A DNA stretch of 62,805 nt from Candidatus Gottesmanbacteria bacterium (lineage in GTDB: Bacteria > Patescibacteriota > Microgenomatia > UBA10105 > UBA927), in NCBI GenBank assembly GCA_016218215.1, contig JACREM010000041.1, forward strand, positions 1 through 62,805, given 5' to 3'. The notes beneath the pieces were generated by a model. That model saw nothing but the letters and a program-made list of their open reading frames with translations. It searched no databases and was not told the DNA's origin. This document shows, piece after piece, positions 1 to 36,751 of the stretch. The position numbers were made by a program, and so were the translations under genes. Position 1 is the stretch's first letter. Each line of letters begins with the position of its first letter.

Positions 1-105
1 GATAACAAAATATGTGAAGGAACAAGGACGAGAAAAAGAATACAAAAAGATGCACGTCGCGCAAATAACGATGTTTTAACAAAGAGCCTGTCGGGAGCAC
101 AATAG
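1..105 (+). CDS. 3' end of an unidentified CDS entering from upstream
   Basis: Frame +1 is open from the window edge to TAG at 103-105. The tail is basic (..TRTRKRIQKDARRANND..). No family recognised. Confidence 0.3.
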   Translation, partial: DNKICEGTRTRKRIQKDARRANNDVLTKSLSGAQ

Positions 106-130
106 ATACCCCGATGGCTCTGCCTCGGGG
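83..130. terminator. Hairpin-rich spacer between convergent gene ends (possible bidirectional terminator)
   Basis: AGAGCC(83-88)/GGCTCT(116-121) encloses TCGGG/CCCGA. A second pairing is CCCCGA(109-114)/TCGGGG(125-130). There is no clean T-tract. Confidence 0.35.
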
Positions 131-139
131 AGTGTCATT

Positions 140-1336
140 TTATAAGGTATTTTTAATAGCTTCTTCGATGAGATAATTTGTGTCGAATTTTTTTGCTAGT
201 TTGAGCGCATTTCTTCTATATGTTGAATATAGTTTTTCATTTGTAAGCAATTTAATAATTGAATCTGAAATATTTTTGATTTGGTATTCAACCATAAATC
301 CTGCGTGATGAAATTGAATAGTTTCTGCAATCGGTGGGACGTTTGTAATTACAACAGGAAGTCCACAACCCAAATAAAGTTTTGGCTTTCCTGGATCGGT
401 AAAATATGTGTAGCTATCTGGTGTGGGGGTGTAGGGCGCAAGTCCGATTGCTGAAGCACAAAGAATTTTTTCTAAGTCATCATGATTCTTTATAAACCCT
501 AGAAATTGTACATACTTTGCAAGCTGAAGGCTTTTTACTAATGCTTTGAGTGTATTTTCATATTCACCTTTTCCTATAATGAGAAGTTGAACATCAGTAA
601 TTCTATTTATTATATATGGAAGTGCTTTTATCATGAGTTGAAGCCCTTGTTTTTCTAAAAGATGACCTGCGAAAACTAGTTGATGCCGATTGATTTTTGA
701 AATTGGGAGTGGATGAATTCGAGATAAATTGGCTCCCATTGGTAACATAACCTGAGGCGCTATTCTAGTGATGCCATATTTTTTCCGCATCTCCGTCATT
801 TTAGGAGAAAGCACCCAAAGCGCATCAGAATACATGCATGCAACTTTGTCGACTAGATGATATAGAAAATTCAAAGGCTTGCTCTCAAATCGTACCGGAA
901 CATAATCAATTGAATAAAAGATGAGTTTGCTAATTTTTCCGAGCAAACGAAAAGGCATTACTGAGACAGTGTTGAGGCTGTCAAGAGCAATGCAAGCTGT
1001 AAATGATATGTGAGATTGCAATATGTATTTGGCACTAATCCAGATGTCTGCAATGTAAAAAATTATTTCGTGATAGCACCTTATTGGTGTAAAGTATTGG
1101 CTTATTAATTTACCGTTTTGGTAAATTCTCATCGAGGATCGTTTGTCATCGGCGTATGGAAATGGATGCTCTATATAAACGATTTTGTTCACCTTTTTTA
1201 AAAGAAAATCTCTGACTTCTTGAGCTGGCCCGCCACCAGATATTGTCCGGGTGTAGTAGTGTGAAATAATAAGTACACTTGAGTTTTGTAATAAATTCAT
1301 ACGATTAATGATAGCTACAATACGCTTTTCATTCAA
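140..1336 (-). CDS. GT4-type (GT-B fold) glycosyltransferase
   Basis: 398 aa ORF. The C-terminal domain is typical of the family (LLIIGKGEYE.., GLAPY.., GKPKLYLGCGLPVVITNVPPIAE). The internal Met at MNLLQNSSVLIISHYY (start about 1300) is an alternative start. Confidence 0.8.
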   Translation of the reverse strand: MNEKRIVAIINRMNLLQNSSVLIISHYYTRTISGGGPAQEVRDFLLKKVNKIVYIEHPFPYADDKRSSMRIYQNGKLISQYFTPIRCYHEIIFYIADIWISAKYILQSHISFTACIALDSLNTVSVMPFRLLGKISKLIFYSIDYVPVRFESKPLNFLYHLVDKVACMYSDALWVLSPKMTEMRKKYGITRIAPQVMLPMGANLSRIHPLPISKINRHQLVFAGHLLEKQGLQLMIKALPYIINRITDVQLLIIGKGEYENTLKALVKSLQLAKYVQFLGFIKNHDDLEKILCASAIGLAPYTPTPDSYTYFTDPGKPKLYLGCGLPVVITNVPPIAETIQFHHAGFMVEYQIKNISDSIIKLLTNEKLYSTYRRNALKLAKKFDTNYLIEEAIKNTL

Positions 1337-1362
1337 TGAGCGTGTTGATATAATAATCAGGA

Positions 1363-3051
1363 ATGAAATTATTTCAAAAAGATTCTATATTTCAGTGTAT
1401 TGTTTTTTTGTTCATCACTTTTGTTGTGCTAGCTACTTATCATGGAGTTTTCTTTACTTTTTTTCAGCAAGATGAATGGCAAAATTATGGACATCATTTA
1501 CTGAAAGGCGCAGGAGTACTATTTGACACAGATCGTGGCCAAAATCTCCTCAAACTTTTTTTTGCAGAAGGACGGGTACTATCAGAAGTGATGTATCTAC
1601 TTCTTTATGGTATAAGCAGGTTTTCAGTTGTTCCAATATTTATTTTTAGCATTTTCGTACAAGTAATTAATTCATATTTAGTATTTATATTAGGAAAAAA
1701 TATCTCGAAATCTTTATTTTTTGGGATAATTGCATCGTTATTTTTTGCAGTAAATAGTGTGTCTAGCCAAGCTGTGACTTGGGCGGCTGCCGTAGGAACT
1801 TTGCCTGCAGCAACATTCTTGCTTTTTTCGTTGTTGTTGTATGTTGAGTATCTTGAAGGCGGAAATACGCGAAAGCGTAATTTTTCTTATTTTCTTGGTA
1901 TTCTCTCTCTATTTTTTAAAGAAACAGGTTTATTTATTTTCGTATTATACCCATTGCTATATCTTCTTTGGGGAAAAGTTAAAAAGATACAAGATATTTT
2001 TCTCGTACATGCACCACTACTTTTGTATGGTATAGCACTTGTCTTGTTTCGAATGTACGAATTGCTTTCGGCACCAAAATCTGCCGCTGGGTTTGTGGGT
2101 CCAGATAGTGGAGGGTTCATTTTGCCAATGTTGTATCACAGTATAGTTAATCCAATGATTTCTCTTATTCAGATGTTTATTCCTCCACTTGATATATATG
2201 CATTCATTCCAACTATTGTTCGGAGCGAATACAGGATGCTTGTTGGTTCCCCGATGTTTGATCTGGTAGGGCAAAGTGCTGTGACAGACGTTGTTTCCCT
2301 CGCCGGGAGCATGATTGTGCTCTTTATTTTGGGCGGTATGCTTTTAGCAGAAAAGAATGAAAATTACGCAAAGAAAACTTTAACTTTTGGATTATTGCTT
2401 TTTTGGCTGAGTTTCCTGCCTTATGCTGTCTTGCATAAAGAATTTTCCTATATGTCATCACGGTATTATTATGTTGGAGCGATCGGTGCTGCTATAGTAT
2501 TTGGGTACCTTGTTGATTGGTTTTTGTGTAGGGTTCATTTTATTGGAAAATCATTCATTTTTGGTTTGGTTGGAATATTTTTAGTGCATCAGATGCAATC
2601 AATTCAAAATGATATTAGACCTCAGATTGTACTTGCCAATGAGAGGAAAAATTATCTGAATGAAATTAAGAGAGTTCATCCGAAGCTGGAAAATAAAACC
2701 ATATTTTATATTACGAGTGATAAAAAATTTCTTGGAGAAATTACGTATCCGTTTCAGAATGGATTGGGATACATATTAGAAGTTCAGTATTATAATACCG
2801 GCAAGATACCAAGAAGTTTCTTAGCGACGGATTTTCTTTGGGATTTGGGAAGTGAGGGATTTAGGGATGAGAACGGTTCTATCTTTGGTTATTTTGAACA
2901 TCTGGATCTGATTGGAGCGGCCGTAAAAGAAGGAAAAATTTCTCCACAAATAGTGTATAGCTATATTTATAATAGTAAAACTCATACAATGAGTGATATC
3001 TCGCTTTCAGTAAGAGAACAGCTTGCCACGCTGAGCGGAAGCTTGCAATGA
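1363..3051 (+). CDS. Polytopic membrane protein, GT-C/PMT-like glycosyltransferase candidate
   Basis: 562 aa with about 10 or more hydrophobic helices and an acidic motif in the first loop (FFQQDEWQNYGHH). A soluble domain of about 150 aa lies at the C-terminus. Function assigned from architecture only. Confidence 0.55.
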   Translation: MKLFQKDSIFQCIVFLFITFVVLATYHGVFFTFFQQDEWQNYGHHLLKGAGVLFDTDRGQNLLKLFFAEGRVLSEVMYLLLYGISRFSVVPIFIFSIFVQVINSYLVFILGKNISKSLFFGIIASLFFAVNSVSSQAVTWAAAVGTLPAATFLLFSLLLYVEYLEGGNTRKRNFSYFLGILSLFFKETGLFIFVLYPLLYLLWGKVKKIQDIFLVHAPLLLYGIALVLFRMYELLSAPKSAAGFVGPDSGGFILPMLYHSIVNPMISLIQMFIPPLDIYAFIPTIVRSEYRMLVGSPMFDLVGQSAVTDVVSLAGSMIVLFILGGMLLAEKNENYAKKTLTFGLLLFWLSFLPYAVLHKEFSYMSSRYYYVGAIGAAIVFGYLVDWFLCRVHFIGKSFIFGLVGIFLVHQMQSIQNDIRPQIVLANERKNYLNEIKRVHPKLENKTIFYITSDKKFLGEITYPFQNGLGYILEVQYYNTGKIPRSFLATDFLWDLGSEGFRDENGSIFGYFEHLDLIGAAVKEGKISPQIVYSYIYNSKTHTMSDISLSVREQLATLSGSLQ

Positions 3052-6000
3052 AACGAATACATTCCATAGTCGAAATACTCTTTATCTTTTTTTGTAGTCT
3101 GACACCACTTCTTTGGCTACGAAATGGTGAGATAATTTTGGGACATGATAGCGGGTTTCGTTTAGATCCATTTCAATATCTTCATACGCTTTGGTATTCG
3201 TGGAATCCAAACTCAGGATTTGGAGTGGATGTAAATAATTATTCCGGATTTCTTATTGCTCAATTTCCTGAAGCGTTTTTTTCTCATGTATTTGGCTCTT
3301 TGAACGCTGGTCAGACGATGAGTTTTATTTTTTGGTTTTTTACCATAGGTATATCAATGTTTATATTGATGAGAAATTTTTTTACTGAAAAAAAGTATTG
3401 GTCGATACGAATTCTCGCTAGTATTTTTTACATGTATAATTTTTATCTTCTTCAGGGATGGTTTATATCAGAAAGAGCTAAATTTTCTCTTTTTGCAGCA
3501 TTACCGCTTTTATTTCTTATTTTCTGGAAAATGCTTTCACATAAATGGGGGATCTTACAAGGTAGTATTTTGATTGCTCTTACGCTATTTTTTCTTAATG
3601 GTGGAGGATCCCCTCCGTTATATGGAGGAATTCTAGTTGCGCTCGGAATATTATTTGCATATTTTATAGTGCTTTCTATTATAAAAAGAAATTTTATTGA
3701 GATAATTTATGTATTACGCTGTGTTTTATCTATTGGAGTCGCAACTGTATGTATAAATGCATATTGGGTATTACCTCAACTTTATTTCGCATTTAATCAG
3801 TATGCTTCTCAGCTTTCATCTTCCGGGGGAATTGCAGGAATACTTTCGTGGGAGGAGGCTGTAAATAGATATGCAAGTTTAATAAATTTACTTCGATTGC
3901 AAGGTATACCTGATTGGTATGAAAATCCAATGCATCCATATTCTGGTATATTTTTAACTTCACCAATTCTCATTATCGCGAGTTTCATCCCGAGTGCAAT
4001 TATGCTTTATGTTCTTATGAAAAAAACGTTAAGAGAGAAATTAAAAGATCAAAGAGTATTTTTATTTGTCTGTTTCATGGTTTTTTTGATTGGACTTGTT
4101 ATGACAGCAGGTTCTCATAGACCATTCGGCTTTATATACATTTTTCTTTTGAAATATTTGCCTGGATTTGCCATATTTCGTTCAGCATTTTATAAATTTG
4201 GACCTTCGTATTGGTTTTCTGCTGTTATATTATTTAGTGTTTCATTTTATTTATTTATTTCTCAAGTAATTAAAAATAATTTATATCAAAAAATAGCTCT
4301 GAGTTTTGTTATTATTGGTGTACTTCTATATCATTTTCCGTATTTTACGGGTACTTTTTTTCTTTGGAATAAGCCATTTTCAACTAAAATAGTTTTGCCC
4401 CAATATGTAAAAAACATGTTTCAGTATTTAAATAGTACATACCTGACTCAGGATAATCATATTTTAATTCTGCCACCACTCGATACTGCATACTATGCTG
4501 ATAGTTATAGTTGGGGTTTCTGGAGCCTAGATTTACTTGCTCGGTTAAGCTTACGTTCTTCGGTCATTGCAAATGATTCCAAAGGACCACTTGTTGCTGC
4601 CCTCTATGACGCTGCTTTGCGAAATAGGAATGATATTTTCGAAGCAATAGCCGGAAGGCTCGGGATAGACAAGATTTTATGGAGAAATGATATATTATAT
4701 TCCGATAAAAAATCTGACAGCAGGAACTTTTCATATATTCGAGATTCAATATTAAAAAGTACAGCATTTTATAATGAAAAGACTTTTGGTGAATGGTTCC
4801 TTTATTCTACAAATAAATTATTAAATTCAAATAATATAGTGAGTGTTGAGCCTCTGATTTATAGAGCAGATATTTATAATTCTGATATTTCATATTTTTT
4901 TAATGCAAATGGCGTTTTGGAATACCCATTTGTTTTTAGTAGTGATTTACATAAGAATATTACAGAGCAAAATTTAGGCACTTTTATAAAAGGAAATGTG
5001 CTTCAAGCTGAGTGCATGTTCTGTGGGTATGAGGGGGCTAAGAATAAAGATGTGATATTTATTGATCAGTATGCAAGATTTTTACCTAGCTCTCCATTCT
5101 ATACTTTTATTCGACAAAAAGAGACAAAATTATTATCAAGCGTGCAAGGCATTCCAGAAGCATTGGTGGATGCGGATCTCGGTCTTGCTACAAAACGAAT
5201 AGTTGAGTTATCCGGAGTCATAAATCAAGAGGGTAGGGATAATATAGAGCTTTTATCTCGTGATATCGTTATGCGTTTTAAGGAAAGAATAGATGATGCA
5301 TTTTTACAAATTGAAAAATTAGGAGATGTGAAGAAAAATATATATAAGGTAAAAATCAATTTGTATATTCGTTATTTTATCAAATATATTGCTGAGATTG
5401 AAAAAAAGAATATATTACCTGGTAATTTTATCTCTTCATTCTATGAATATTTGCGAAATGCAACAGAAAAATTATCTTTGGAAACATGGATAAGTGATGG
5501 AAATGGTCATGATAGGTATTTTCTTACGATACCGACAAAAGGTTTGTATCACTTTTTAATTTCGAATTATAATAAAAGTTTAAATTCGATAAAAATAGAT
5601 AATGAAACTATACTTGATTATTCCCAGGTCGATTTGTCAGAAGGTATTCATAAAATAGAATTGACATATGAACCAATAAATGAAATTGCGGAGAATGTTG
5701 GTGCCACAGAGAAAATATTTTTAACCTACCACAACAAAAAATCTTATATTCTACCAGCTTTGTCATCTTTAGATAATTATGAGTTGCAATTTCAATATAA
5801 GATTTCTCAAGGTCGAAGTATTTATGTTGCACTTTACCAAAACAATGATTCACTCGATAAATCTGGCAATATAAAGCGCGCAGTATACTCAGAACTTGAG
5901 GATGACGGAAAATGGCATTCAGCAAATTTTGTAATTCAACCTAATTTTGGCGTATCAACTGGGGAAGTAGTATTCTTTACTGCGAATACTTCAAATGATT

Positions 6001-6485
6001 TAAATGCATTAGAAGTAGAAAATTTGACTGTTAGAAACATTTCCCCATCTAGAATTTTTGTGGTCCGAGAAAATGAAAAAGTTCCAGTTGAGATGCCTAG
6101 TATTAATGTAAAAAGAAATAATTCGGCTATATACACCGTGAAGGTAGATGAAGCAAAACATCCGTATATTTTAAATTTTAAGCAAACTTTTAATCAAGGA
6201 TGGAAAGCATTTGTAATACCGTCTGGAGATACTGAAAAATATGAGAATGCATGGCAGAGATTTAAGTTATTATTTCAATCCCCTGTCGAAGAAACACAAC
6301 ATTTCTCGATAGACGGATATACAAATGCTTGGATTATAAAAAATACTGGTTCATACACAGTACTTCTCGTATATTGGCCACATATGCTATTTCTTGTATC
6401 AGTTGTATGTTCTGTTATTTCGATTTTATTGACTTGCTTAGTAGTGTTAAAGATTATTAGAGAAAAGGGCAAATCACATGAATAG
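3048..6485 (+). CDS. Giant GT-C-like membrane glycosyltransferase (AftD/DUF3367- or YfhO-like architecture)
   Basis: 1145 aa. The N-terminus reads GHDSGFRLDPFQYLHTLWYSWNPNSGFG and is followed by about 12 TM helices. A soluble region of about 650 aa and a single C-terminal TM anchor (LFLVSVVCSVISILLTCLVVL) follow. ATGA overlap with the upstream gene. Confidence 0.6.
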   Translation: MKRIHSIVEILFIFFCSLTPLLWLRNGEIILGHDSGFRLDPFQYLHTLWYSWNPNSGFGVDVNNYSGFLIAQFPEAFFSHVFGSLNAGQTMSFIFWFFTIGISMFILMRNFFTEKKYWSIRILASIFYMYNFYLLQGWFISERAKFSLFAALPLLFLIFWKMLSHKWGILQGSILIALTLFFLNGGGSPPLYGGILVALGILFAYFIVLSIIKRNFIEIIYVLRCVLSIGVATVCINAYWVLPQLYFAFNQYASQLSSSGGIAGILSWEEAVNRYASLINLLRLQGIPDWYENPMHPYSGIFLTSPILIIASFIPSAIMLYVLMKKTLREKLKDQRVFLFVCFMVFLIGLVMTAGSHRPFGFIYIFLLKYLPGFAIFRSAFYKFGPSYWFSAVILFSVSFYLFISQVIKNNLYQKIALSFVIIGVLLYHFPYFTGTFFLWNKPFSTKIVLPQYVKNMFQYLNSTYLTQDNHILILPPLDTAYYADSYSWGFWSLDLLARLSLRSSVIANDSKGPLVAALYDAALRNRNDIFEAIAGRLGIDKILWRNDILYSDKKSDSRNFSYIRDSILKSTAFYNEKTFGEWFLYSTNKLLNSNNIVSVEPLIYRADIYNSDISYFFNANGVLEYPFVFSSDLHKNITEQNLGTFIKGNVLQAECMFCGYEGAKNKDVIFIDQYARFLPSSPFYTFIRQKETKLLSSVQGIPEALVDADLGLATKRIVELSGVINQEGRDNIELLSRDIVMRFKERIDDAFLQIEKLGDVKKNIYKVKINLYIRYFIKYIAEIEKKNILPGNFISSFYEYLRNATEKLSLETWISDGNGHDRYFLTIPTKGLYHFLISNYNKSLNSIKIDNETILDYSQVDLSEGIHKIELTYEPINEIAENVGATEKIFLTYHNKKSYILPALSSLDNYELQFQYKISQGRSIYVALYQNNDSLDKSGNIKRAVYSELEDDGKWHSANFVIQPNFGVSTGEVVFFTANTSNDLNALEVENLTVRNISPSRIFVVRENEKVPVEMPSINVKRNNSAIYTVKVDEAKHPYILNFKQTFNQGWKAFVIPSGDTEKYENAWQRFKLLFQSPVEETQHFSIDGYTNAWIIKNTGSYTVLLVYWPHMLFLVSVVCSVISILLTCLVVLKIIREKGKSHE

Positions 6486-6840
6486 GATGCAAATTCAGTG
6501 TATGGAATTTGTTGCAAAAAATGGTTCAAAATTAATTGTATTTACTCTCGCTGTAGTTTTGCTAATATTCCTAGAGAAGTTTCCCTATTTAAACATTCTA
6601 TTGTCTTATCCTTTTACCTGGAATCTATTTGTAATCCTTTTTTTCTTGTTAGTTGTACTTTTTAAGCCCACAGAGTCTTTTTCCTTTTTTTCTTCTTTGG
6701 TATTTTTATGTTTTTCAGCTATATTTTCTATTTTTCGAAAAGATATGGCTGCTCAAGGAGTCGGAAATATCGCTGTGTATTTATTGATATTTGGATTTTT
6801 ACAAATAGTTCTTTTTAAGTTAAAAGTAAATCATGTATGA
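6478..6840 (+). CDS. Small 4-TM membrane protein
   Basis: 120 aa with four hydrophobic segments. It overlaps both neighbouring genes (8 nt and 4 nt), which implies co-translation with the flanking GT-C genes. Confidence 0.6.
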   Translation: MNRMQIQCMEFVAKNGSKLIVFTLAVVLLIFLEKFPYLNILLSYPFTWNLFVILFFLLVVLFKPTESFSFFSSLVFLCFSAIFSIFRKDMAAQGVGNIAVYLLIFGFLQIVLFKLKVNHV

Positions 6841-8867
6841 AAAAATTTATTGAGAAAATTCTTTTAACGAATAGATTTCAAGTGGTTATGTTTGTGTTTG
6901 TGATATTGTATATAGCATTAGTGTTTCGCGGTTGGTTTTCTTTTTCACTTCATGTATCTGGCGACTTTTTATATAAGTTTCCTGAGGCGGTAAAGGATTT
7001 TCCATTGTTTCCTTCACTTTGGAATTCAATCATAGCCGGGGGACTCGGTGGAAATGCAAGTTTTCTTCTGGGACTAGAGTCCTGGTACTTAGCATCTGCA
7101 AAGATATTTGGTTTTTTTGGTCTCGGATGGGAGTGGGTAGAAAAGATAATCTGGTTCTATCCATTTCTGTTTATTTCATTTTTAGGCAGTTTTTTCCTTG
7201 GGAAAAGGATCCTTCATTCAAGTATTTGGGCTCTCATTTCATCTGTGATTTATTGTACGAATACATATGTCCTCATGATCTCAGGGGGAGGCCAGATTGG
7301 CGTACTGCTTTCAGTTGCTCTTGCTCCATGGGTACTTGATCGATCCTTGGCATTACTCGACCACCTTAGTAGAAAGAATATTGTTTATCTTAGTATTGTG
7401 CTTGCTTTTCAAATGCTGTTTGATGCACGGATGGTGTTTGTTACGAGCATGGGGATTGCTTTATTATTCTTTTTTCAAATTTCATCAATTTCATGGCTTA
7501 AGGATCGATTGCTTTACCTTGGCATTTCATTTTTCTTTGCTTTCGGACTTCTCTCGTGGTGGCTTTTGCCTTTTGTTTTTTCTCCTCATGAAACTTTAAG
7601 TTCCATGGGATTATCGTCAGTATCTCTTTCTGCTGTGCGTTATTTCAGTTTCGCGCCATTTGAGCATGCAATCTCGCTTCTTCATCCCAATTGGCCGGAG
7701 AATATATTTGGCAAGATCCACTTTTTGCAGCCGGAATTTTTACTATTACCGTTTTTGGCATTTTTAAGTTTATCCTTCATACATAAGAGTGAAACGAAGA
7801 GATATTTATATATAGGTTTTGTCATAACAGCACTAGTAGGAGCGTTTTTAGCAAAAGGATCTCAGCCTCCGTTTGGGAATATATATGAATATTTATATAT
7901 GCATGTTCCGGGTTTTAGTTTGTTCCGTGACCCGACTAAATTTTTATTGCTTGTAGCACTTTCGTATTCAGTTTTGATTCCGTACACGCTTCAGAGATTT
8001 GCTGAAATTATTAAAACTAAATATGGAAACAAAAAAGAGAGAACCGTAGTTGGTATTCTGATCTTGTTTTTTATTTTTCTCTGGGGCACAGTGCATAGAG
8101 AAATTTTTACTCCGGGGCTTGGTGGGACTTTTCAGGAGCACGGAGTAAATATAGAATACACTCAGCTGAAAGATTTTTTGTTAAAAGATAAAGAATTTGG
8201 ACGAATGCTTTGGGTGCCAACAACCCATAAATTAGGGTTTTCTTCAGGTTTACATCCATCAATATCCGCTATGGATGTATTGAAAAGTACAAATTCCGCT
8301 GAATTATTTGACAGACTACAGAATTCAGAAACGCTACGAAAACTTGAAGAATGGGCAGTGTCATATATCGTGGTTCCTGAGGATACGAGTGCCGAGATAT
8401 TCGCGACAGACCGAAGGTATGACGACAAAAAATATCAAGAAGCACTTAGGGCCATGGAGATTGTTCCTGGATTCCATGTTGCTGCGCAGTTAGGGAAAAT
8501 TGTAGTTTTCCAATCTAACTTGCCGGTTCGGCACGTGTGGATTATCGGTGATGGAAATATTTCTGTTTCTGCCGAGTATAAAAAATTATCGAATACTTCT
8601 TACATTTTGGACAAACCCATCGGAATAACGTTGACTGCACTCTATTTGTCAGAAAGATATGATCCGGGATGGGTAGCGCGGATAGGTGATTTGCGTATCG
8701 CTTCGACGAAGACAGATACCAATATTAATATGTTTAACATCCCAGATGGAGCATCAGATTCAATTCTGATTGAATACGAGCCGCAAAAATATGTAATTGC
8801 GGGAATGATTTTGTCGATTCTGACCGGATGTGCCATGGCGGTGTATTTTTTCAATAGAAAATTATGA
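6837..8867 (+). CDS. GT-C-like polytopic membrane glycosyltransferase candidate
   Basis: 676 aa. It has an N-terminal multi-TM domain, a soluble C-terminal domain and a terminal TM anchor (VIAGMILSILTGCAMAVYFF). The layout matches the 3048-6485 protein. Confidence 0.6.
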   Translation: MKKFIEKILLTNRFQVVMFVFVILYIALVFRGWFSFSLHVSGDFLYKFPEAVKDFPLFPSLWNSIIAGGLGGNASFLLGLESWYLASAKIFGFFGLGWEWVEKIIWFYPFLFISFLGSFFLGKRILHSSIWALISSVIYCTNTYVLMISGGGQIGVLLSVALAPWVLDRSLALLDHLSRKNIVYLSIVLAFQMLFDARMVFVTSMGIALLFFFQISSISWLKDRLLYLGISFFFAFGLLSWWLLPFVFSPHETLSSMGLSSVSLSAVRYFSFAPFEHAISLLHPNWPENIFGKIHFLQPEFLLLPFLAFLSLSFIHKSETKRYLYIGFVITALVGAFLAKGSQPPFGNIYEYLYMHVPGFSLFRDPTKFLLLVALSYSVLIPYTLQRFAEIIKTKYGNKKERTVVGILILFFIFLWGTVHREIFTPGLGGTFQEHGVNIEYTQLKDFLLKDKEFGRMLWVPTTHKLGFSSGLHPSISAMDVLKSTNSAELFDRLQNSETLRKLEEWAVSYIVVPEDTSAEIFATDRRYDDKKYQEALRAMEIVPGFHVAAQLGKIVVFQSNLPVRHVWIIGDGNISVSAEYKKLSNTSYILDKPIGITLTALYLSERYDPGWVARIGDLRIASTKTDTNINMFNIPDGASDSILIEYEPQKYVIAGMILSILTGCAMAVYFFNRKL

Positions 8868-8985
8868 AAAAAAGTTCTCATTACCGGTTCAGCAGGACTT
8901 ATAGGCAGTGAAGCGGTGCGATATTACTGTCAAAAAGGATTCGAAGTACATGGTATAGACAATAACATGCGAGCTTATTTTTTTA
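8864..8985 (+). pseudogene. Frameshifted, truncated 5' fragment of the NAD-dependent epimerase gene (paralogous to 10394-10520)
   Basis: 8874-8984 translates to [37 protein letters not shown], against [37 protein letters not shown] in the intact gene. The ATG at 8864 is out of frame because of an A7 run (8867-8873). Homology ends at about 8984. Confidence 0.8.
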
Positions 8986-9004
8986 GGTACGTAATAAATA
9001 GTAT

Positions 9005-9033
9005 TTGATAAAATGATTCCAACGGAATATACT
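9005..9033 (+). promoter_or_regulatory. Sigma70-like promoter for abiEi/abiEii
   Basis: TTGATA (9005-9010), a 17-nt spacer, then TATACT (9028-9033), 38 nt upstream of the abiEi ATG. Confidence 0.45.
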
Positions 9034-9043
9034 CATTACAGTA

Positions 9044-9063
9044 ATTACCTATATTTAGGTAAT
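9044..9063 (+). promoter_or_regulatory. Perfect 8-bp inverted repeat, candidate AbiEi operator
   Basis: ATTACCTA-tatt-TAGGTAAT lies between the -10 element and the abiEi start codon. Confidence 0.45.
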
Positions 9064-9070
9064 AAATGAA

Positions 9071-9667
9071 ATGAAAACATCACTTTTAGCCATCAGAGAC
9101 ACTTTGTTAGCGAAACATCTCCCGATATTTTCAGCGCGGGAGTTTGGAGCGCTGCTTTCTTTATCGAACAGACAAACGCTATATTATCTCCAAAAAGGTG
9201 CTGAGAATGGATTGTTTATTCAAGCTAAACGTGGGATATATTACCTTAAGACTGATCCGCCTTCTGAGTTGGAAATTGCTAATCAGCTCTACCGCCCTTC
9301 ATATATTTCATTTGAATTTGCGCTTGCCTACTACAATCTTTTACCTGAAATGGTCTATACCATAACTTCAGCTACTACTAAGCCTACCCGGGAATATACG
9401 GTTGAAACAAAAATCTTTCGTTATACCACTATTAAACTTAGTGCATATACAGGATATGAAATGAAAGTAGCTAATCATAAACGATTTTTTATTGCTGAAC
9501 CGGAAAAAGCTATTGTCGATTATCTGTATGCGGTTTCTCTCGGGAGACGGGCATTATCAGAACGTCTTGACCTGTCTACTGTTGATATAAAAAAGATAAA
9601 AATATATACAACGCTTTTCGCCAGTAAATCTTTGAATGCTTTAGTAACCAAAGTATTTCAAAAATAA
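9071..9667 (+). CDS. abiEi: Type IV toxin-antitoxin / abortive infection antitoxin, AbiEi family
   Basis: 198 aa. It has an N-terminal wHTH-like region (FSAREFGALLSLSNRQTLYYLQKGAENGLFIQAKRGIYY) and the family-typical SFEFALAYYNLLPE. It sits 3 nt upstream of an AbiEii gene. Confidence 0.8.
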   Translation: MKTSLLAIRDTLLAKHLPIFSAREFGALLSLSNRQTLYYLQKGAENGLFIQAKRGIYYLKTDPPSELEIANQLYRPSYISFEFALAYYNLLPEMVYTITSATTKPTREYTVETKIFRYTTIKLSAYTGYEMKVANHKRFFIAEPEKAIVDYLYAVSLGRRALSERLDLSTVDIKKIKIYTTLFASKSLNALVTKVFQK

Positions 9668-9669
9668 TT

Positions 9670-10389
9670 ATGCTTAGTCCATTATATTTACAACAACTTG
9701 CTACCAAATATCAAACGCCGGACATAAATATTTGTCGGGAATATGGACAACATGTACTCTTAAGCTATCTTTATCAAAGATCGGAAGCAAAAGATCTGTA
9801 TTTTAAAGGAGGAACAGCACTCCGGTTGCTTTACAGAAGCACTCGTTTTTCTGAAGATTTAGATTTCGATACTGTCGTACATACTAGCGGGATTTGGGAA
9901 AATGTATTGCAGGATACTCTTGTAGATGTCTCTCGCGAAGGCATAGAGACAGACATAAAAGAGAGTAAAACTACCAGTGGTGGTTATCTTTGTATTGTAA
10001 TATTGAGAAATATTGGTCAGCCTATCACTATTCACTTAGAAATATCATTTCGGAAAGATATAGTGCTAGGAGAGATATTTACCGTCGAAAATGATTTTGT
10101 TTCTGTTTATCCGGTAAAAAGTTTACCTACCAAAAATTTAATTGAAGGTAAATTTCATGCACTATTTGATCGTCAGAAGGCTCGTGATTTTTATGATATA
10201 TATTTTTTGTTACGGGCAAATCTGCTAACCCCCGGCCAAAAAAAACAGTTATATAAAGTGAAACAATTACTTTCCAAAACAACATTGAGTTTTGACAGAG
10301 AGCTATCATTGTTTCTTCCAAAGAGCCAGGTTTTGATTATCCGGGACTTTCGTAATACTTTGTTACGGGAGATTGAACGAAACATTTAA
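9670..10389 (+). CDS. abiEii: Nucleotidyltransferase toxin, AbiEii/AbiGii family
   Basis: 239 aa with the signature [24 protein letters not shown] and the C-terminal motif [11 protein letters not shown]. Confidence 0.85.
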
Positions 10390-10393
10390 CACT

Positions 10394-11443
10394 ATGAAAC
10401 GAAAAAAAGTCCTTATTACTGGATCTGCCGGGCTGATCGGATCGGAAGCCGTACGATTTTATTGTGATAAAGGTTCCGAAGTTCACGGTATAGACAATAA
10501 CATGCGAGCGTATTTTTTCGGCGCAGACGGAGACACCGGTTGGAATAAAAAAAAGCTAATCAAAGATTACAAAAATTATATTCATCATCAGATTGATATA
10601 CGCGACGAAAAAAAGATAGATGATATTTTTAAATCTATACGCTTTGATCTCATCATTCATGCCGCCGCTCAACCATCACATGATTGGGCTGCAAAGGAGC
10701 CGATGACTGATTTTACCATTAATGCCGTAGCGACTCTTCTGCTTCTTGAAAAAACAAGAACGTATGCTAAAGATGCGGTGTTTATTTTTACGTCAACGAA
10801 TAAAGTGTACGGGGATAATCCAAATCTCCTGCCGCTCATAGAAGAAGCAACACGGTACGAATTACCAAAGAGTCATCCGATGTATAAGGGCATAGATGAG
10901 AGTATGAGTCTCGACCATACGACACATAGCATTTTTGGTGTTTCTAAGGCGTCAGCAGATCTCATGGTACAGGAGTACGGCAGGTATTTTGGTCTTTATA
11001 CCGGTGTTTTCCGAGGCGGATGTCTCACAGGAAGTGCTCATTCGCCCTCAAAATTTCACGGTTTCCTTGCATATCTCGTGAAATGTATCCGTGAAGGTAT
11101 TCCATACACTATCATCGGATACAAAGGAAAACAGGTGCGGGATAATATCCATTCACATGATCTGATAACGGCTTTTGATGCGTTCTTTGAGAATCCAAAA
11201 AAAGGCGAGGTCTATAATATCGGCGGCTCCCGACATTCAAATATTTCCATGACCGAGGCTGTGAAGTGTGTTGAAGCGATACTCGGTAAAAAAGCAAAAG
11301 TGACATATATTGATACTCCCAGAGTAGGTGATCATATGTGGTACGTTTCAGACACCGGAAAATTTCAAAGGCATTATCCCAAATGGAAATATGAATATGA
11401 TATCGAGAAAATTCTCCAGGATTTGTGCAAAGGATACAGGTAA
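10394..11443 (+). CDS. NAD-dependent sugar epimerase (SDR; CDP-paratose/tyvelose 2-epimerase-like)
   Basis: Rossmann motif [10 protein letters not shown], then STNKVYGD and the catalytic YxxxK (FGVSKASAD). Overall layout resembles CDP-tyvelose 2-epimerase. I placed the start at [10 protein letters not shown], 4 nt after the abiEii stop, rather than at the ORF-track ATG 10373. Confidence 0.7.
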
Positions 11444-11455
11444 TACTATAAGTAT

Positions 11456-12244
11456 ATGAAAACAATCATTTTGTGTGGTGGAATAGGATATAGATTAAAA
11501 GAAGAGACAGAATTTAAGCCAAAGCCCATGGTTCAAATCGGCAATAAGCCGATACTCTGGCATATCATGAAAATCTATGCACACTTTGGGTATAACGAAT
11601 TTATTATTGCGCTCGGATACAAAGGTGATGATATAAAAGAATATTTTTTGAATCAAAAATATTTTACTCATGATTTTACACTTTTGACGAAAAGCGGAGT
11701 GACGAAAATTCATAAGGAAAATGATAATGGCAAGGGAGTGGATGAATTTAAAATTACATTTGTTGATACGGGTCGCGATACGCTTCCGGGAGAACGAATT
11801 TTACGACTTCAGGAGTATATTCCAAAGACCGATAAAAGTTTTATGGTGACGTATGGCGACGGAGTCAGCAACATAGACATTCGGAAACTTGTCGTGTTTC
11901 ACAACAAACAAAAAACTATAGGAACTGTAACCGGTGTACATCCGAGGAGCAAATACGGTCTCATATCTTTAAATACGAAAACACATATCATAGATGGGTT
12001 TACCGAGAAACCGGTGTTAAATGAGTGGGTAAATGGGGGATTTATGGTATTTAGAAAAGAATTTTTTTCATACCTTAGAAAAGGAGAGATGGAGCATGAA
12101 GCAATACGTCGTCTTATAGCGATAAAACAGCTATCTTTGTATATTCATACCGGTTTTTGGCATGCGATGGATACGTATGTCGATGTGGAAAACCTTAATA
12201 AATACTGGCATGAAAAACCGGAATGGAAGATATGGAAAGACTGA
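11456..12244 (+). CDS. rfbF: Glucose-1-phosphate cytidylyltransferase
   Basis: MKTIILCGGIGYRLKEETEFKPKPMVQIGNKPILWHIMKIYAHFGYNEFIIALGYKG closely parallels the Salmonella RfbF N-terminus. Confidence 0.9.
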   Translation: MKTIILCGGIGYRLKEETEFKPKPMVQIGNKPILWHIMKIYAHFGYNEFIIALGYKGDDIKEYFLNQKYFTHDFTLLTKSGVTKIHKENDNGKGVDEFKITFVDTGRDTLPGERILRLQEYIPKTDKSFMVTYGDGVSNIDIRKLVVFHNKQKTIGTVTGVHPRSKYGLISLNTKTHIIDGFTEKPVLNEWVNGGFMVFRKEFFSYLRKGEMEHEAIRRLIAIKQLSLYIHTGFWHAMDTYVDVENLNKYWHEKPEWKIWKD

Positions 12245-13200
12245 AAAACGTCAGGGTGCTTGTTACCGGAGGATCAGGATTCATAGGGGGATACGTAGTT
12301 AAAAAATTACTTTCAAAAGGTTACAAAGTAAGTGTTATAGATATCAATATCCATAGTTCTTCAGTATTTTTTCTTGAGAAATTAAAATCACAGGTGAAGT
12401 TTACTAATTTAGACATACGCGACAGACCGAAGGTTTTTCGATTTTTTTCAAAATATAAATTTGACTATGTCATCCATCTCGCCGCCGAGCCAATCGTTGA
12501 ACGTGGATATGATGATCCTCTCAAGACATTTGAAACAAATATCATGGGAACAGCAAATGTGCTCGAGGGCTTACGAAGATCGTCTCCTAAGACTGGAGTT
12601 ATTGTGGCTTCTTCTGATAAAGCGTACGGAAAGACTCAAGATAAAACGTATACAGAGAAGTCTCCGCTCGTAGGCGATCACCCGTATGATGTATCAAAAT
12701 CCTGTACGGACCTCATTGCCCAGACATATGCCAAGACCTACGGTATGCCGATCGTGGTGACGAGATTTGGAAACGTCTACGGTGGAGGGGATGTACATCT
12801 CGATCGGATTATCCCCGGTATATGCATGGCAATCATAGATAAGAAGAAATTAAACGTACGAAGTGATGGGACGTATGTCCGTGATTATATATATGTCGAA
12901 GATGTCGCGGATGGATACATATTTTTACTCAAAAATATAGATAAAGCGGCGGGGCAGGTATATAATTTTTCTTCCGACGATAATTTTTCCGTCGTTGATT
13001 TAATACATAAAGCGTCGGAGTATTTAGGAGAAAAAATTTCATATAATATATTAAATTCTGCAAAGAATGAAATACCATATCAACATCTGGATTATTCAAA
13101 AATTCGAACATTAGGATGGAAGCCAAAGCATACATTAAAAGTCGGACTGGAAAAAACACTTTCCTGGTATAAAAAATTTTATAAAGCCGGATTAAATTAG
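12223..13200 (+). CDS. rfbG: CDP-glucose 4,6-dehydratase-like SDR
   Basis: VTGGSGFIGG, ASSDKAYG and YDVSKSC (YxxxK) are present. GNVYGGGDVHLDRIIPG matches the RfbG motif GNVIGGGDWALDRIVPD. The start could be 12223 or 12232. Confidence 0.7.
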   Translation: MEDMERLKNVRVLVTGGSGFIGGYVVKKLLSKGYKVSVIDINIHSSSVFFLEKLKSQVKFTNLDIRDRPKVFRFFSKYKFDYVIHLAAEPIVERGYDDPLKTFETNIMGTANVLEGLRRSSPKTGVIVASSDKAYGKTQDKTYTEKSPLVGDHPYDVSKSCTDLIAQTYAKTYGMPIVVTRFGNVYGGGDVHLDRIIPGICMAIIDKKKLNVRSDGTYVRDYIYVEDVADGYIFLLKNIDKAAGQVYNFSSDDNFSVVDLIHKASEYLGEKISYNILNSAKNEIPYQHLDYSKIRTLGWKPKHTLKVGLEKTLSWYKKFYKAGLN

Positions 13201-36187: not shown

Positions 36188-36751
36188 ATGAGATCACAGC
36201 GAATGTATAGGGCTGAAGGCGTGATAATTCATCGGAAGATTTACGGTGAAGCTGATAGATTTCTGACTATATTCACAAAACATCAGGGGAAGATTCGAGT
36301 CCTGGCAAAAGGAATCCGAAAAATTACCAGTAAACGTGCTCCACATCTGGATACACTAAGCATTGTATCTATGATTGTGTATGCCGGGAAAAGCGTTGAT
36401 ATTGTTGGAGAATGTGCTCGATTTGGGAAGCAGTTTTCATTTTCAGACGATCTGGTTAAAGTAAGTTTTTCCTATTATGTGTGTGAGCTTGTTGATGCAC
36501 TTACAGCATTAAATATTGCAAATGAAAATCAATATTTTATGTTTGTTCGTACTCTTCAAAAAATAGAGCGTGCTACTTCTCGAAGTGAATTATATCAAAT
36601 TGTGTATGAGTTCGCGCTGTCACTTCTCATAGCCCTTGGGTTTTTGCCGGGATCGTCTGAGGTTCAAAAAGAGACGATAAATCAGTTCATAGAGTCAATT
36701 ATCGAGCGAAGGCTTAAGACCGTACGACTCTTGACAAGTTTTGCAAACTGA
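36188..36751 (+). CDS. recO: DNA repair protein RecO (short form)
   Basis: The N-terminal OB fold reads YRAEGVIIHRKIYGEADRFLTIFTKHQGKIRVLAKGIRKITSKRAPHLD. It is only 187 aa. Confidence 0.75.
   Translation: MRSQRMYRAEGVIIHRKIYGEADRFLTIFTKHQGKIRVLAKGIRKITSKRAPHLDTLSIVSMIVYAGKSVDIVGECARFGKQFSFSDDLVKVSFSYYVCELVDALTALNIANENQYFMFVRTLQKIERATSRSELYQIVYEFALSLLIALGFLPGSSEVQKETINQFIESIIERRLKTVRLLTSFAN

Follow-up and report, generated by a model that had tools for sequence, protein, structure and literature searches.

The subject of this study is an AbiE gene pair (abiEi and abiEii) located at the 5' end of a sugar-epimerase gene in a Candidatus Gottesmanbacteria genome. It lies in contig JACREM010000041.1 (GCA_016218215.1), of which a stretch of 62,805 nt, hereafter the window, was analyzed; coordinates within it refer to its forward strand, on which all the parts of the cassette locus are encoded. 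Positions 8985–10518 (1,534 nt) probably constitute a discrete mobile defense cassette, which has no recombinase of its own and which spreads by homologous recombination guided by an arm of homology. From left to right, the cassette would comprise a spacer, its own promoter with an operator, abiEi and abiEii, and, after a linker of 4 nt, the arm, which would copy the first ~125 nt of a conserved sugar-epimerase gene.

The start of the epimerase gene is present twice in the window. The left (L) copy, at 8864–8984, is the displaced and dead original 5' end of the resident gene. The right (R) copy, at 10394–10518, is the replacement 5' end, or arm, borne by the cassette; it is preceded by the linker CACT, and is compared below with the R copies of two other assemblies, L178 and L179. 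The 1.53-kb unit bounded by the two repeats holds abiEi and abiEii only. Positions 8866–8983 and 10401–10518 align without gaps over 118 nt with a score of 116 (shuffled sequences: 16.3 ± 2.3, maximum 29), and form the longest direct repeat within the window. The frame 8874–8984 encodes 37 residues, 34 of which are shared by the N-terminus of the live epimerase, encoded from 10394. The original prediction, made from the letters of the DNA, had placed a dead copy of the epimerase start at this position and had been staked on segments 8864–8990 and 10394–10520 aligning better than shuffled controls, which they do by a wide margin.

The prediction had also noted that the fragment and the upstream gene overlap in an ATGA. 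Indeed, the TGA stop of the upstream open reading frame (ORF) occupies 8865–8867, and the ATG of the fragment 8864–8866. Read over 15 residues from this ATG, the frame is broken. The ATG is out of frame, as predicted, where an A7 run (8867–8873) had been held responsible. A 2-nt difference from the in-frame fragment of L179 (ATGAAGAAAAAAGTT), an assembly which is itself prone to indels, describes the shift better than a simple slip from A6 to A7 would.

The differences between the L and R copies number 2, 3 and 20 at codon positions 1, 2 and 3, and they are synonymous in 19 codons and non-synonymous in 3. Since the differences are mostly synonymous and at third positions, the two copies must have diverged as functional genes, each in its own lineage, before being brought together. 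The differences are also unevenly distributed, 23 being found within the first 78 nt and 2 within the last 33 nt; the identity of the repeat is 79% overall and 55/78 in its proximal part. A 23-mer, GGTATAGACAATAACATGCGAGC, which is present exactly twice in the window, at 8952 and 10487, is common to both copies and extends to 32 nt with one mismatch (8952–8983 matches 10487–10518 at 31/32 positions, the exact part being 8952–8974). This succession of early third-position differences and late identity had been recognized in the prediction. The 23-nt identity sits in the GIDNNMRA motif, which is conserved at the nucleotide level among orthologues (20/23 positions in the cassette-free relative L173); because of this conservation, the identity would by itself be only weakly beyond expectation. 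The distal block, 8952–8983, is most likely the crossover zone in the window genome, a placement which rests on one long identical block.

The cassette was found in two further, independent assemblies from other projects: L178, a contig of 1,564 nt which is bounded by the repeat, and L179, a contig of 60 kb (ENA ERZ1286166, contig_1700). In both, it occupies the same position, at the start of the epimerase gene. The cassettes of the window and L178 are 97.9% identical (1375/1405, with no indels), those of the window and L179 98.1% identical, and those of L178 and L179 98.6% identical, while the flanks of the cassette are 72–88% identical across the three genomes. Between the window and L179, the bodies of the epimerase genes are ~83% identical, whereas the cassettes differ by 26 substitutions over 1,400 positions (p = 2e-44). 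At third codon positions, the window and L178 differ at 17 of 439 sites in the cassette and at 20 of 36 sites in the adjacent epimerase 5' ends (Fisher p = 7e-16). These data indicate that the cassette moved between lineages much more recently than the epimerase genes diverged. A profile scan of 55 ORFs of the window detected RecO, but no integrase or transposase family. The earlier description of the element as a mobile cassette without a recombinase is supported by these results.

L179 was probably assembled from long reads and it is error-prone; comparisons based on substitutions should be robust in this assembly, those based on indels are not. In the region 1–12162 of this contig, nearly all genes are split into short ORFs, a pattern typical of uncorrected long-read indel errors, and the gene calls are unreliable there.

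The window, L178 and L179 have both cassette junctions in common. On the left, AGGTACGTAATAAAT comes directly after the T-run with which the L copy meets the cassette; the first 20 nt of the cassette, AGGTACGTAATAAATAGTAT (8985–9004), are the spacer which forms its left end. On the right, the common junction reads TAA-CACT-ATGAAACGAAAAAAAGT. Downstream of abiEii, the gene start is first of the shared type and then of the resident type, and the point at which one gives way to the other is specific to each genome. In L178, the switch occurs after ~nt 17 (10394–10410 is common to the window and L178). The R copy of L179 is the same as that of the window over the first 62 nt (10394–10455; 59/59 compared positions), and is then nearly identical to its own L fragment. 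As for the window, its copies remain different as far as nt 93, after which 31/32 positions agree; this places the switch at nt 93 or later and the join to the resident sequence at or after 10486. The distal parts of the L and R copies are nearly identical within a genome (30/30 in L178, about 55/59 in L179). A variable switch point argues for homologous recombination, rather than for a site-specific enzyme which acts at a fixed point. That the window and L179 have a 62-nt start in common although their gene bodies are only ~83% identical indicates that the cassette brings a replacement gene start with it, as had been proposed.

The L fragment is ATGA-coupled to different upstream genes, which encode a 676-aa membrane protein in the window and an NAD-dependent epimerase in L179, where the fragment has kept its frame (ATGAAGAAAAAAGTT). 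Some relatives have an empty site. In L174, which is free of the cassette, the upstream epimerase gene is ATGA-coupled directly to an intact target gene; L173, also without the cassette, is syntenic with L179 on both sides at 80–83% identity. Both copies of the window align to the single gene start of L173 (85/111 and 91/111). The different ATGA-coupled upstream genes, together with the architecture of L174 and L173, identify the fragment as the original start of the resident gene, in agreement with the prediction. An interim idea, based on a similar identity to L173, was that the live start and the gene body have one origin and that the dead fragment is foreign. It was dropped because L179 showed that the gene start travels with the cassette.

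The cassette has its own promoter (9005–9033), in which TTGATA and TATACT are separated by 17 nt and 10 of the 12 positions match the consensus. A TTGACA −35 box is kept in seven more distant relatives of the cassette, in which the similarity to the window starts at this box. Between the −10 box and the start of abiEi, a perfect 8+4+8 palindrome can be read, ATTACCTA-TATT-TAGGTAAT (9044–9063); it is identical in L178 and in another relative, L004, and recognizable in more distant ones. AbiEi proteins regulate their own expression through inverted repeats that serve as operators in their promoter. By analogy, the palindrome is presumed to be the AbiEi operator.

abiEi (9071–9667) encodes the predicted antitoxin and transcriptional repressor, a protein of 198 aa (PADLOC AbiEi, E = 1.4e-36); it matches Pfam AbiEi_4 below the cut-off (E = 7.6e-4) and NCBIfam TAA_AbiEi weakly. 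abiEii (9670–10389), which starts after a gap of 2 nt, encodes the predicted nucleotidyltransferase toxin, of 239 aa (Pfam PF08843, E = 8e-24; PADLOC AbiEii, E = 5.6e-25). The nucleotidyltransferase motifs of AbiEii, including the KxxALxxRxKxRDxxD positions, are invariant in a family alignment of 38 homologues. These correspond to the catalytic motifs of the DUF1814 nucleotidyltransferase family, which are thus intact. The pair combines a toxin of the expected family with an antitoxin encoded upstream and is, judged by its predicted products, an AbiE type IV toxin–antitoxin, or abortive infection, system. The abiEii stop is at 10389 and the epimerase ATG at 10394, with CACT in between. The live chimeric gene (10394–11443) encodes a 349-aa NAD-dependent epimerase/dehydratase (Pfam PF01370, E = 4.7e-38), homologues of which are labelled CDP-paratose 2-epimerase by the Joint Genome Institute (JGI). 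A scan of 8000–11500 against Rfam gave no match.

Arm-guided homologous recombination would account for junctions that are constant, a live gene that is chimeric, a resident start that is displaced and a crossover that varies. The cassette would enter when its arm recombines homologously with the resident epimerase gene at the 5' end. One way would be Campbell-type integration of a circle carrying the cassette and the arm; another, equally possible, would be a looped-out heteroduplex formed with a linear donor that carries the fragment, the cassette and the gene. The product would be an intact chimeric epimerase gene with a start from the cassette and a resident remainder, which would now be transcribed from the abiE promoter, starting 4 nt after the abiEii stop. 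The old 5' end of the resident, now dead, would stay behind on the upstream side, where it is still coupled to the preceding gene. In a circular form, the end of the arm would be joined to the left spacer, from which constant junctions would result. The two direct repeats would permit the precise loss of the cassette and the re-formation of the transferable unit, and the toxin–antitoxin pair would be expected to penalize this loss. What we infer in this scheme is how the recombination proceeds, in which physical form the DNA is transferred, by which route it passes between cells, and that AbiE has a stabilizing role.

Several points weigh against it. The distal parts of the two copies match each other within each genome, not those of the other genomes, whereas a simple Campbell event predicts a dead fragment whose distal part is of the donor type; a later step of intragenomic gene conversion, mismatch correction or duplication is therefore needed. 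Neither a circular form nor a donor was seen. The model leaves the origin of the first arm-bearing cassette unexplained, and a recombinase may be encoded elsewhere in the genome, the scan having covered 55 ORFs of the window. As to the other copies of the cassette, the L179 assembly is error-prone, with many indel-broken ORFs, and L178 is only 1.56 kb long. Lastly, the empty sites anticipated by the prediction exist in L174 and L173, but for the locus of the window itself, synteny of the upstream gene revealed none at the strain level, the closest homologues of this gene being 37–40% identical.

Another possibility is that each lineage underwent its own insertion accompanied by a lengthy duplication of the target: a cassette ending at ~10410 would have duplicated ~107 nt of the resident gene, and allelic replacement of one side would have followed, to which the divergence in the window and L179 would be due. 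Such duplications are documented for restriction–modification systems (PMC2853133), the distal parts of the copies are nearly identical within a genome (30/30 in L178), and repeats 90–97% identical are present at many other AbiE loci. However, the 62-nt start is common to L179 and the window, and only ~17 nt of it to L178, for which an imported arm with a variable crossover is the simplest explanation. Independent duplication requires in addition a replacement in two of the three genomes, which would have begun each time exactly at the edge of the cassette. With these 62 nt in common, the arm model is more parsimonious than duplication and subsequent allelic replacement, and we consider the latter unlikely. 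Site-specific integration by a recombinase acting in trans is also to be considered; the cassette would then be a cis-mobilizable element or the remnant of an island, the 23–32-nt repeat its attachment (att) core, and AbiE its last cargo. Integrase-bearing islands comprise elements which take the place of a gene end and which can lie in tandem at a single att site. The replaced gene end of the window and the arrays found at the loci L004, L118 and L037 resemble this, and at L077 the repeat that flanks AbiE resembles, by eye, a tRNA gene end. On the other hand, three genomes have three switch points (~nt 17, ~nt 62, and nt 93 or later), and the L004 cassettes that lie behind the same GT2 gene start have differing junction positions. 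At other loci, the repeats have unrelated sequences of 30–118 nt, and those of the survey presented below are confined to the 500 nt before abiEi and the 300 nt after abiEii. The repeat-bounded unit contains abiEi and abiEii only in the window, L178, L179 and L004, and the 55 scanned ORFs include no recombinase family. The original prediction had described a gene-end insertion of the island type: the target gene is repaired as it stated, but the 23- or 32-nt repeat is not a dedicated att core. The conservation of this motif among orthologues (20/23 in L173) and the varying switch points rule that role out, and a trans-acting recombinase seems unlikely.

A history without any insertion, in which abiE would have been located between tandem epimerase genes and the upstream gene mostly deleted, would also yield a coding-like, mostly synonymous divergence. 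It is very unlikely: the same fragment end and the same junction occur in three genomes which have different upstream genes, the cassette is 98% identical against 72–88% for the flanks, relatives without the cassette have a single gene, and the pattern recurs at many unrelated genes. As for an assembly artefact that joined strain variants, the source is a metagenome-assembled genome and the L178 contig breaks exactly at the repeat, but this explanation is hardly credible. Two independent Logan assemblies from different runs, L001 and L002, are identical to the window region over 3.8 kb and 10.7 kb (0 mismatches), which shows that the locus is not an assembly chimera, and the same architecture is present in the 60-kb contig of another project (L179).

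Insertion with long target duplication is said to have been described for restriction–modification systems by Nobusato and coworkers (in Gene in 2000, 259:99). Restriction–modification systems without a mobility gene occur in inserts flanked by long, variable target repeats (>30 bp), which are statistically enriched; these duplications often span the start or the stop codon, so that the target gene survives, and relatives have empty sites (PMC2853133). Most cases come from naturally competent species (PMC2853133; PMC3457768). The window cassette is similar in that it is an addiction-type unit without a mobility gene, with long target repeats, a surviving target gene and empty sites. Furuta et al. 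(2010) look for a complete system in an insert of less than 20 kb without a mobility gene, for flanking direct repeats of the target longer than 30 bp, and for an empty site in a relative which aligns to both repeats. Here the unit is 1.53 kb long, the repeats are 118 nt long, and L174 and L173 provide the empty site. Near-identical repeats, as expected from the duplication of one resident sequence, are seen only in the distal 32 nt; the proximal part of the R copy matches the cassette of L179 rather than the resident gene.

The cassette differs from the restriction–modification cases by its cargo, an AbiE pair, and its host, a bacterium of the Candidate Phyla Radiation (CPR), and by the fact that the repeats in the window are only 79% identical, because part of one was imported with the cassette. 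The papers on long target duplication leave the mechanism open, whereas here the arm is linked to the cassette and the crossover points differ in three genomes. What is new is thus the cargo and the host group, the import of part of one repeat with the cassette, and a variable crossover that points toward homologous recombination. A limited literature search, in which "AbiE" mostly matched the tree genus Abies, found no report of long target duplication for AbiE or in CPR bacteria.

The dusA islands are inserted by an integrase and replace the 5' end of their target gene. Like these, and like the islands at the 3' ends of tRNA and tmRNA genes, the cassette provides a surrogate gene end that keeps the target functional, leaves a fragment of the displaced end, and has relatives that are stacked. 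Unlike them, it is only 1.5 kb long with two genes, no integrase was found in the element or nearby (among the 55 scanned ORFs of the window), and there is no fixed crossover core of the attL/attR kind. Campbell-type integration shares with the proposed mechanism the use of host homologous recombination, the duplicated homology segment and the variable crossover point; the distal parts of the repeats, which look resident-derived, differ from what a plain Campbell event gives. The minimal mobile elements of Neisseria are exchanged by transformation and flanking homology. Unlike these elements or a Campbell circle, the window unit is a natural, self-contained defense cassette whose homology is a conserved gene start. 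Integron cassettes are also small, stack head-to-tail at one site, as at L004, L118 and L037, and commonly have toxin–antitoxin cargo. However, no IntI-like protein was found among the 55 scanned ORFs, the boundaries are copies of host gene starts (no formal attC search was made), and the window cassette and the close relatives that were checked have their own promoter.

The frequency of such repeats was assessed with 140 non-redundant AbiE operons from bacteria and archaea, taken among the matches listed in AbiEii scans of genomes and metagenomes. These matches are mostly ~30% identical to the window protein and served the survey rather than the tracking of the window cassette. A scan of viral contigs gave nothing relevant. 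The 500 nt upstream of abiEi were aligned with the 300 nt downstream of abiEii, and repeats with a score of at least 40 were retained. Flanking repeats were detected in 22/140 AbiE operons, compared to 2/177 shifted controls and 0/42 gene-pair controls (Fisher p = 0.003 against gene pairs); these counts concern repeats, and do not by themselves prove an insertion at each locus. Most of the repeats are gene ends: either the downstream gene is repeated at its 5' end, or a neighboring gene at its 3' end. This suggests that such insertions are common for AbiE, at ~16% of the operons tested.

The genes duplicated at their 5' end include a glycosyltransferase-like gene (L121, with weak Pfam support), a clear GT1 glycosyltransferase gene (L118), an epimerase gene (L057) and a histidine phosphatase gene; a further one is presumably leuS, named from a reading of its N-terminal sequence. 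At L057 (4278–5887), in a Candidatus Altiarchaeales archaeon, an AbiE pair 30% identical to that of the window is located at the 5' end of a gene for an NAD-dependent epimerase, and the 44-nt duplicate encodes VLVTGGAGFIGSH; the target gene is of the same kind, in a different domain of life. At L121 (2759–4361), AbiE is flanked by a 71-nt repeat (66/71) with a TAATG stop/start overlap on both sides. Since TAATG is present in both repeats, the stop codon of abiEii lies inside the duplicated target sequence. The repeat which flanks AbiE at L077 (4226–5825) has the look of the 3' end of a tRNA gene on the other strand (GGTTCAAGTCC-type), as we presume by eye. L077 may therefore be a classical integrase-type insertion rather than one of the arm type.

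Among the more distant relatives of the module (62–89% AbiEii identity), the similarity extends only from the −35 box to the abiEii stop, and each relative is found in a different context. The relative in L004 (89% AbiEii identity) has decayed remnants of an epimerase start on both sides: a 17-nt match, ACTATGAAACGAAAAAA, has a p value of about 0.002, and the remnant in the right flank one of 0.002–0.004. In the left flank of L004, no significant homology (p about 0.4) was seen to the final part of the window's dead fragment through the T-run, and a greater similarity of the remnant to the new copy than to the old one was not supported. In L090, a relative 68% identical to the window cassette, a 14-nt exact direct repeat, CCAAATTATACACC, occurs at 2323–2336 and 3739–3752, just outside the −35 box and 14 nt past the abiEii stop. 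It is of borderline significance, and might represent the same kind of duplication on a much smaller scale.

Some loci contain several cassettes in tandem. L004 (3380–9870; Candidatus Gottesmanbacteria, GCA_030679255.1, JAUXTO010000013.1) has an array of defense cassettes before one GT2 gene. It is made up of three abiEi/abiEii pairs that belong to different subtypes, a truncated AbiE cassette and one gene for a PDC-S01 (AAA_14/DUF4143) ATPase. The start of the GT2 gene, present in five copies which fall into three sequence types, separates these units from one another, and the junction positions differ between cassettes. An AAA_14 gene in L008 has no flanking repeat. At L118 (2024–4889; JGI contig Ga0118677_10015943), three copies of a 61-nt GT1 gene start, 93–97% identical, bound two cassettes, one with an HTH-Fic/DOC gene and the other with an AbiE pair. 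At L037 (778–4912; Parcubacteria GW2011_GWA1_40_21) and L130 (519–4811; a JGI contig), a 35-nt segment in which the ATG of the target gene lies is present three times, and its copies bound two units, a 2.7-kb cassette with a reverse transcriptase (RVT_1) and an AbiE pair. The product of the target gene starts with MKKYEHKKIEKKWQKYW, which we take, from reading it, to be leucyl-tRNA synthetase.

The cargo found besides AbiE therefore comprises PDC-S01 AAA_14/DUF4143 ATPases, HTH-Fic/DOC proteins and a reverse transcriptase. We propose tentatively, as a wider reading which is possible but not the likelier one, that AbiE and other small defense or addiction genes are widespread recombinase-free cassettes, each of which takes along the copied end of a conserved host gene for use as an arm of homology. 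The homologous recombination of the host would carry them from one diverged genome to another. In CPR bacteria, archaea and beyond, they would accumulate in arrays that resemble those of integrons, where conserved genes (glycosyltransferases, epimerases, leuS) have their 5' ends, and addiction would protect them from precise repeat-mediated loss. How small defense and toxin–antitoxin modules move without a mobility gene is a long-standing gap, for which the window locus and its two near-identical relatives offer a concrete and testable answer in one case. The arrays suggest that such cassettes can build multi-cassette defense islands inside the operons of very compact genomes. There is also a caution for annotation: short "pseudogene" fragments of gene starts beside defense genes can be the footprints of such insertions.

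The resident gene upstream of the cassette (6837–8867, an ORF call) encodes the 676-aa membrane protein mentioned above, the TGA stop of which overlaps the ATG of the dead fragment. The original prediction had called it a glycosyltransferase of the GT-C type, a label which could not be established: the protein is possibly GT-C-like, but a Pfam scan assigned it to no family, and only some few homologues have PF11847 or PF09586. Positions 8395–8425, in this gene, resemble 12411–12441, in a second epimerase gene, over 31 nt (84%), of which 17 in a row, CGCGACAGACCGAAGGT, match exactly; the two segments are read in different frames, and the size of the match is roughly at chance level for a window of this length.

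The window carries a glycan-synthesis cluster of ~36 kb, then recO, then a cell-division and cell-wall cluster. recO directly follows the glycan cluster (36188–36751), and mraZ, mraW, a penicillin-binding protein gene, mur ligase genes, ftsW, murG and ftsA come next (38987–61591). The presence of recO and of these cell-division and cell-wall genes indicates that the cassette is located in the core chromosome, rather than in a mobile region.

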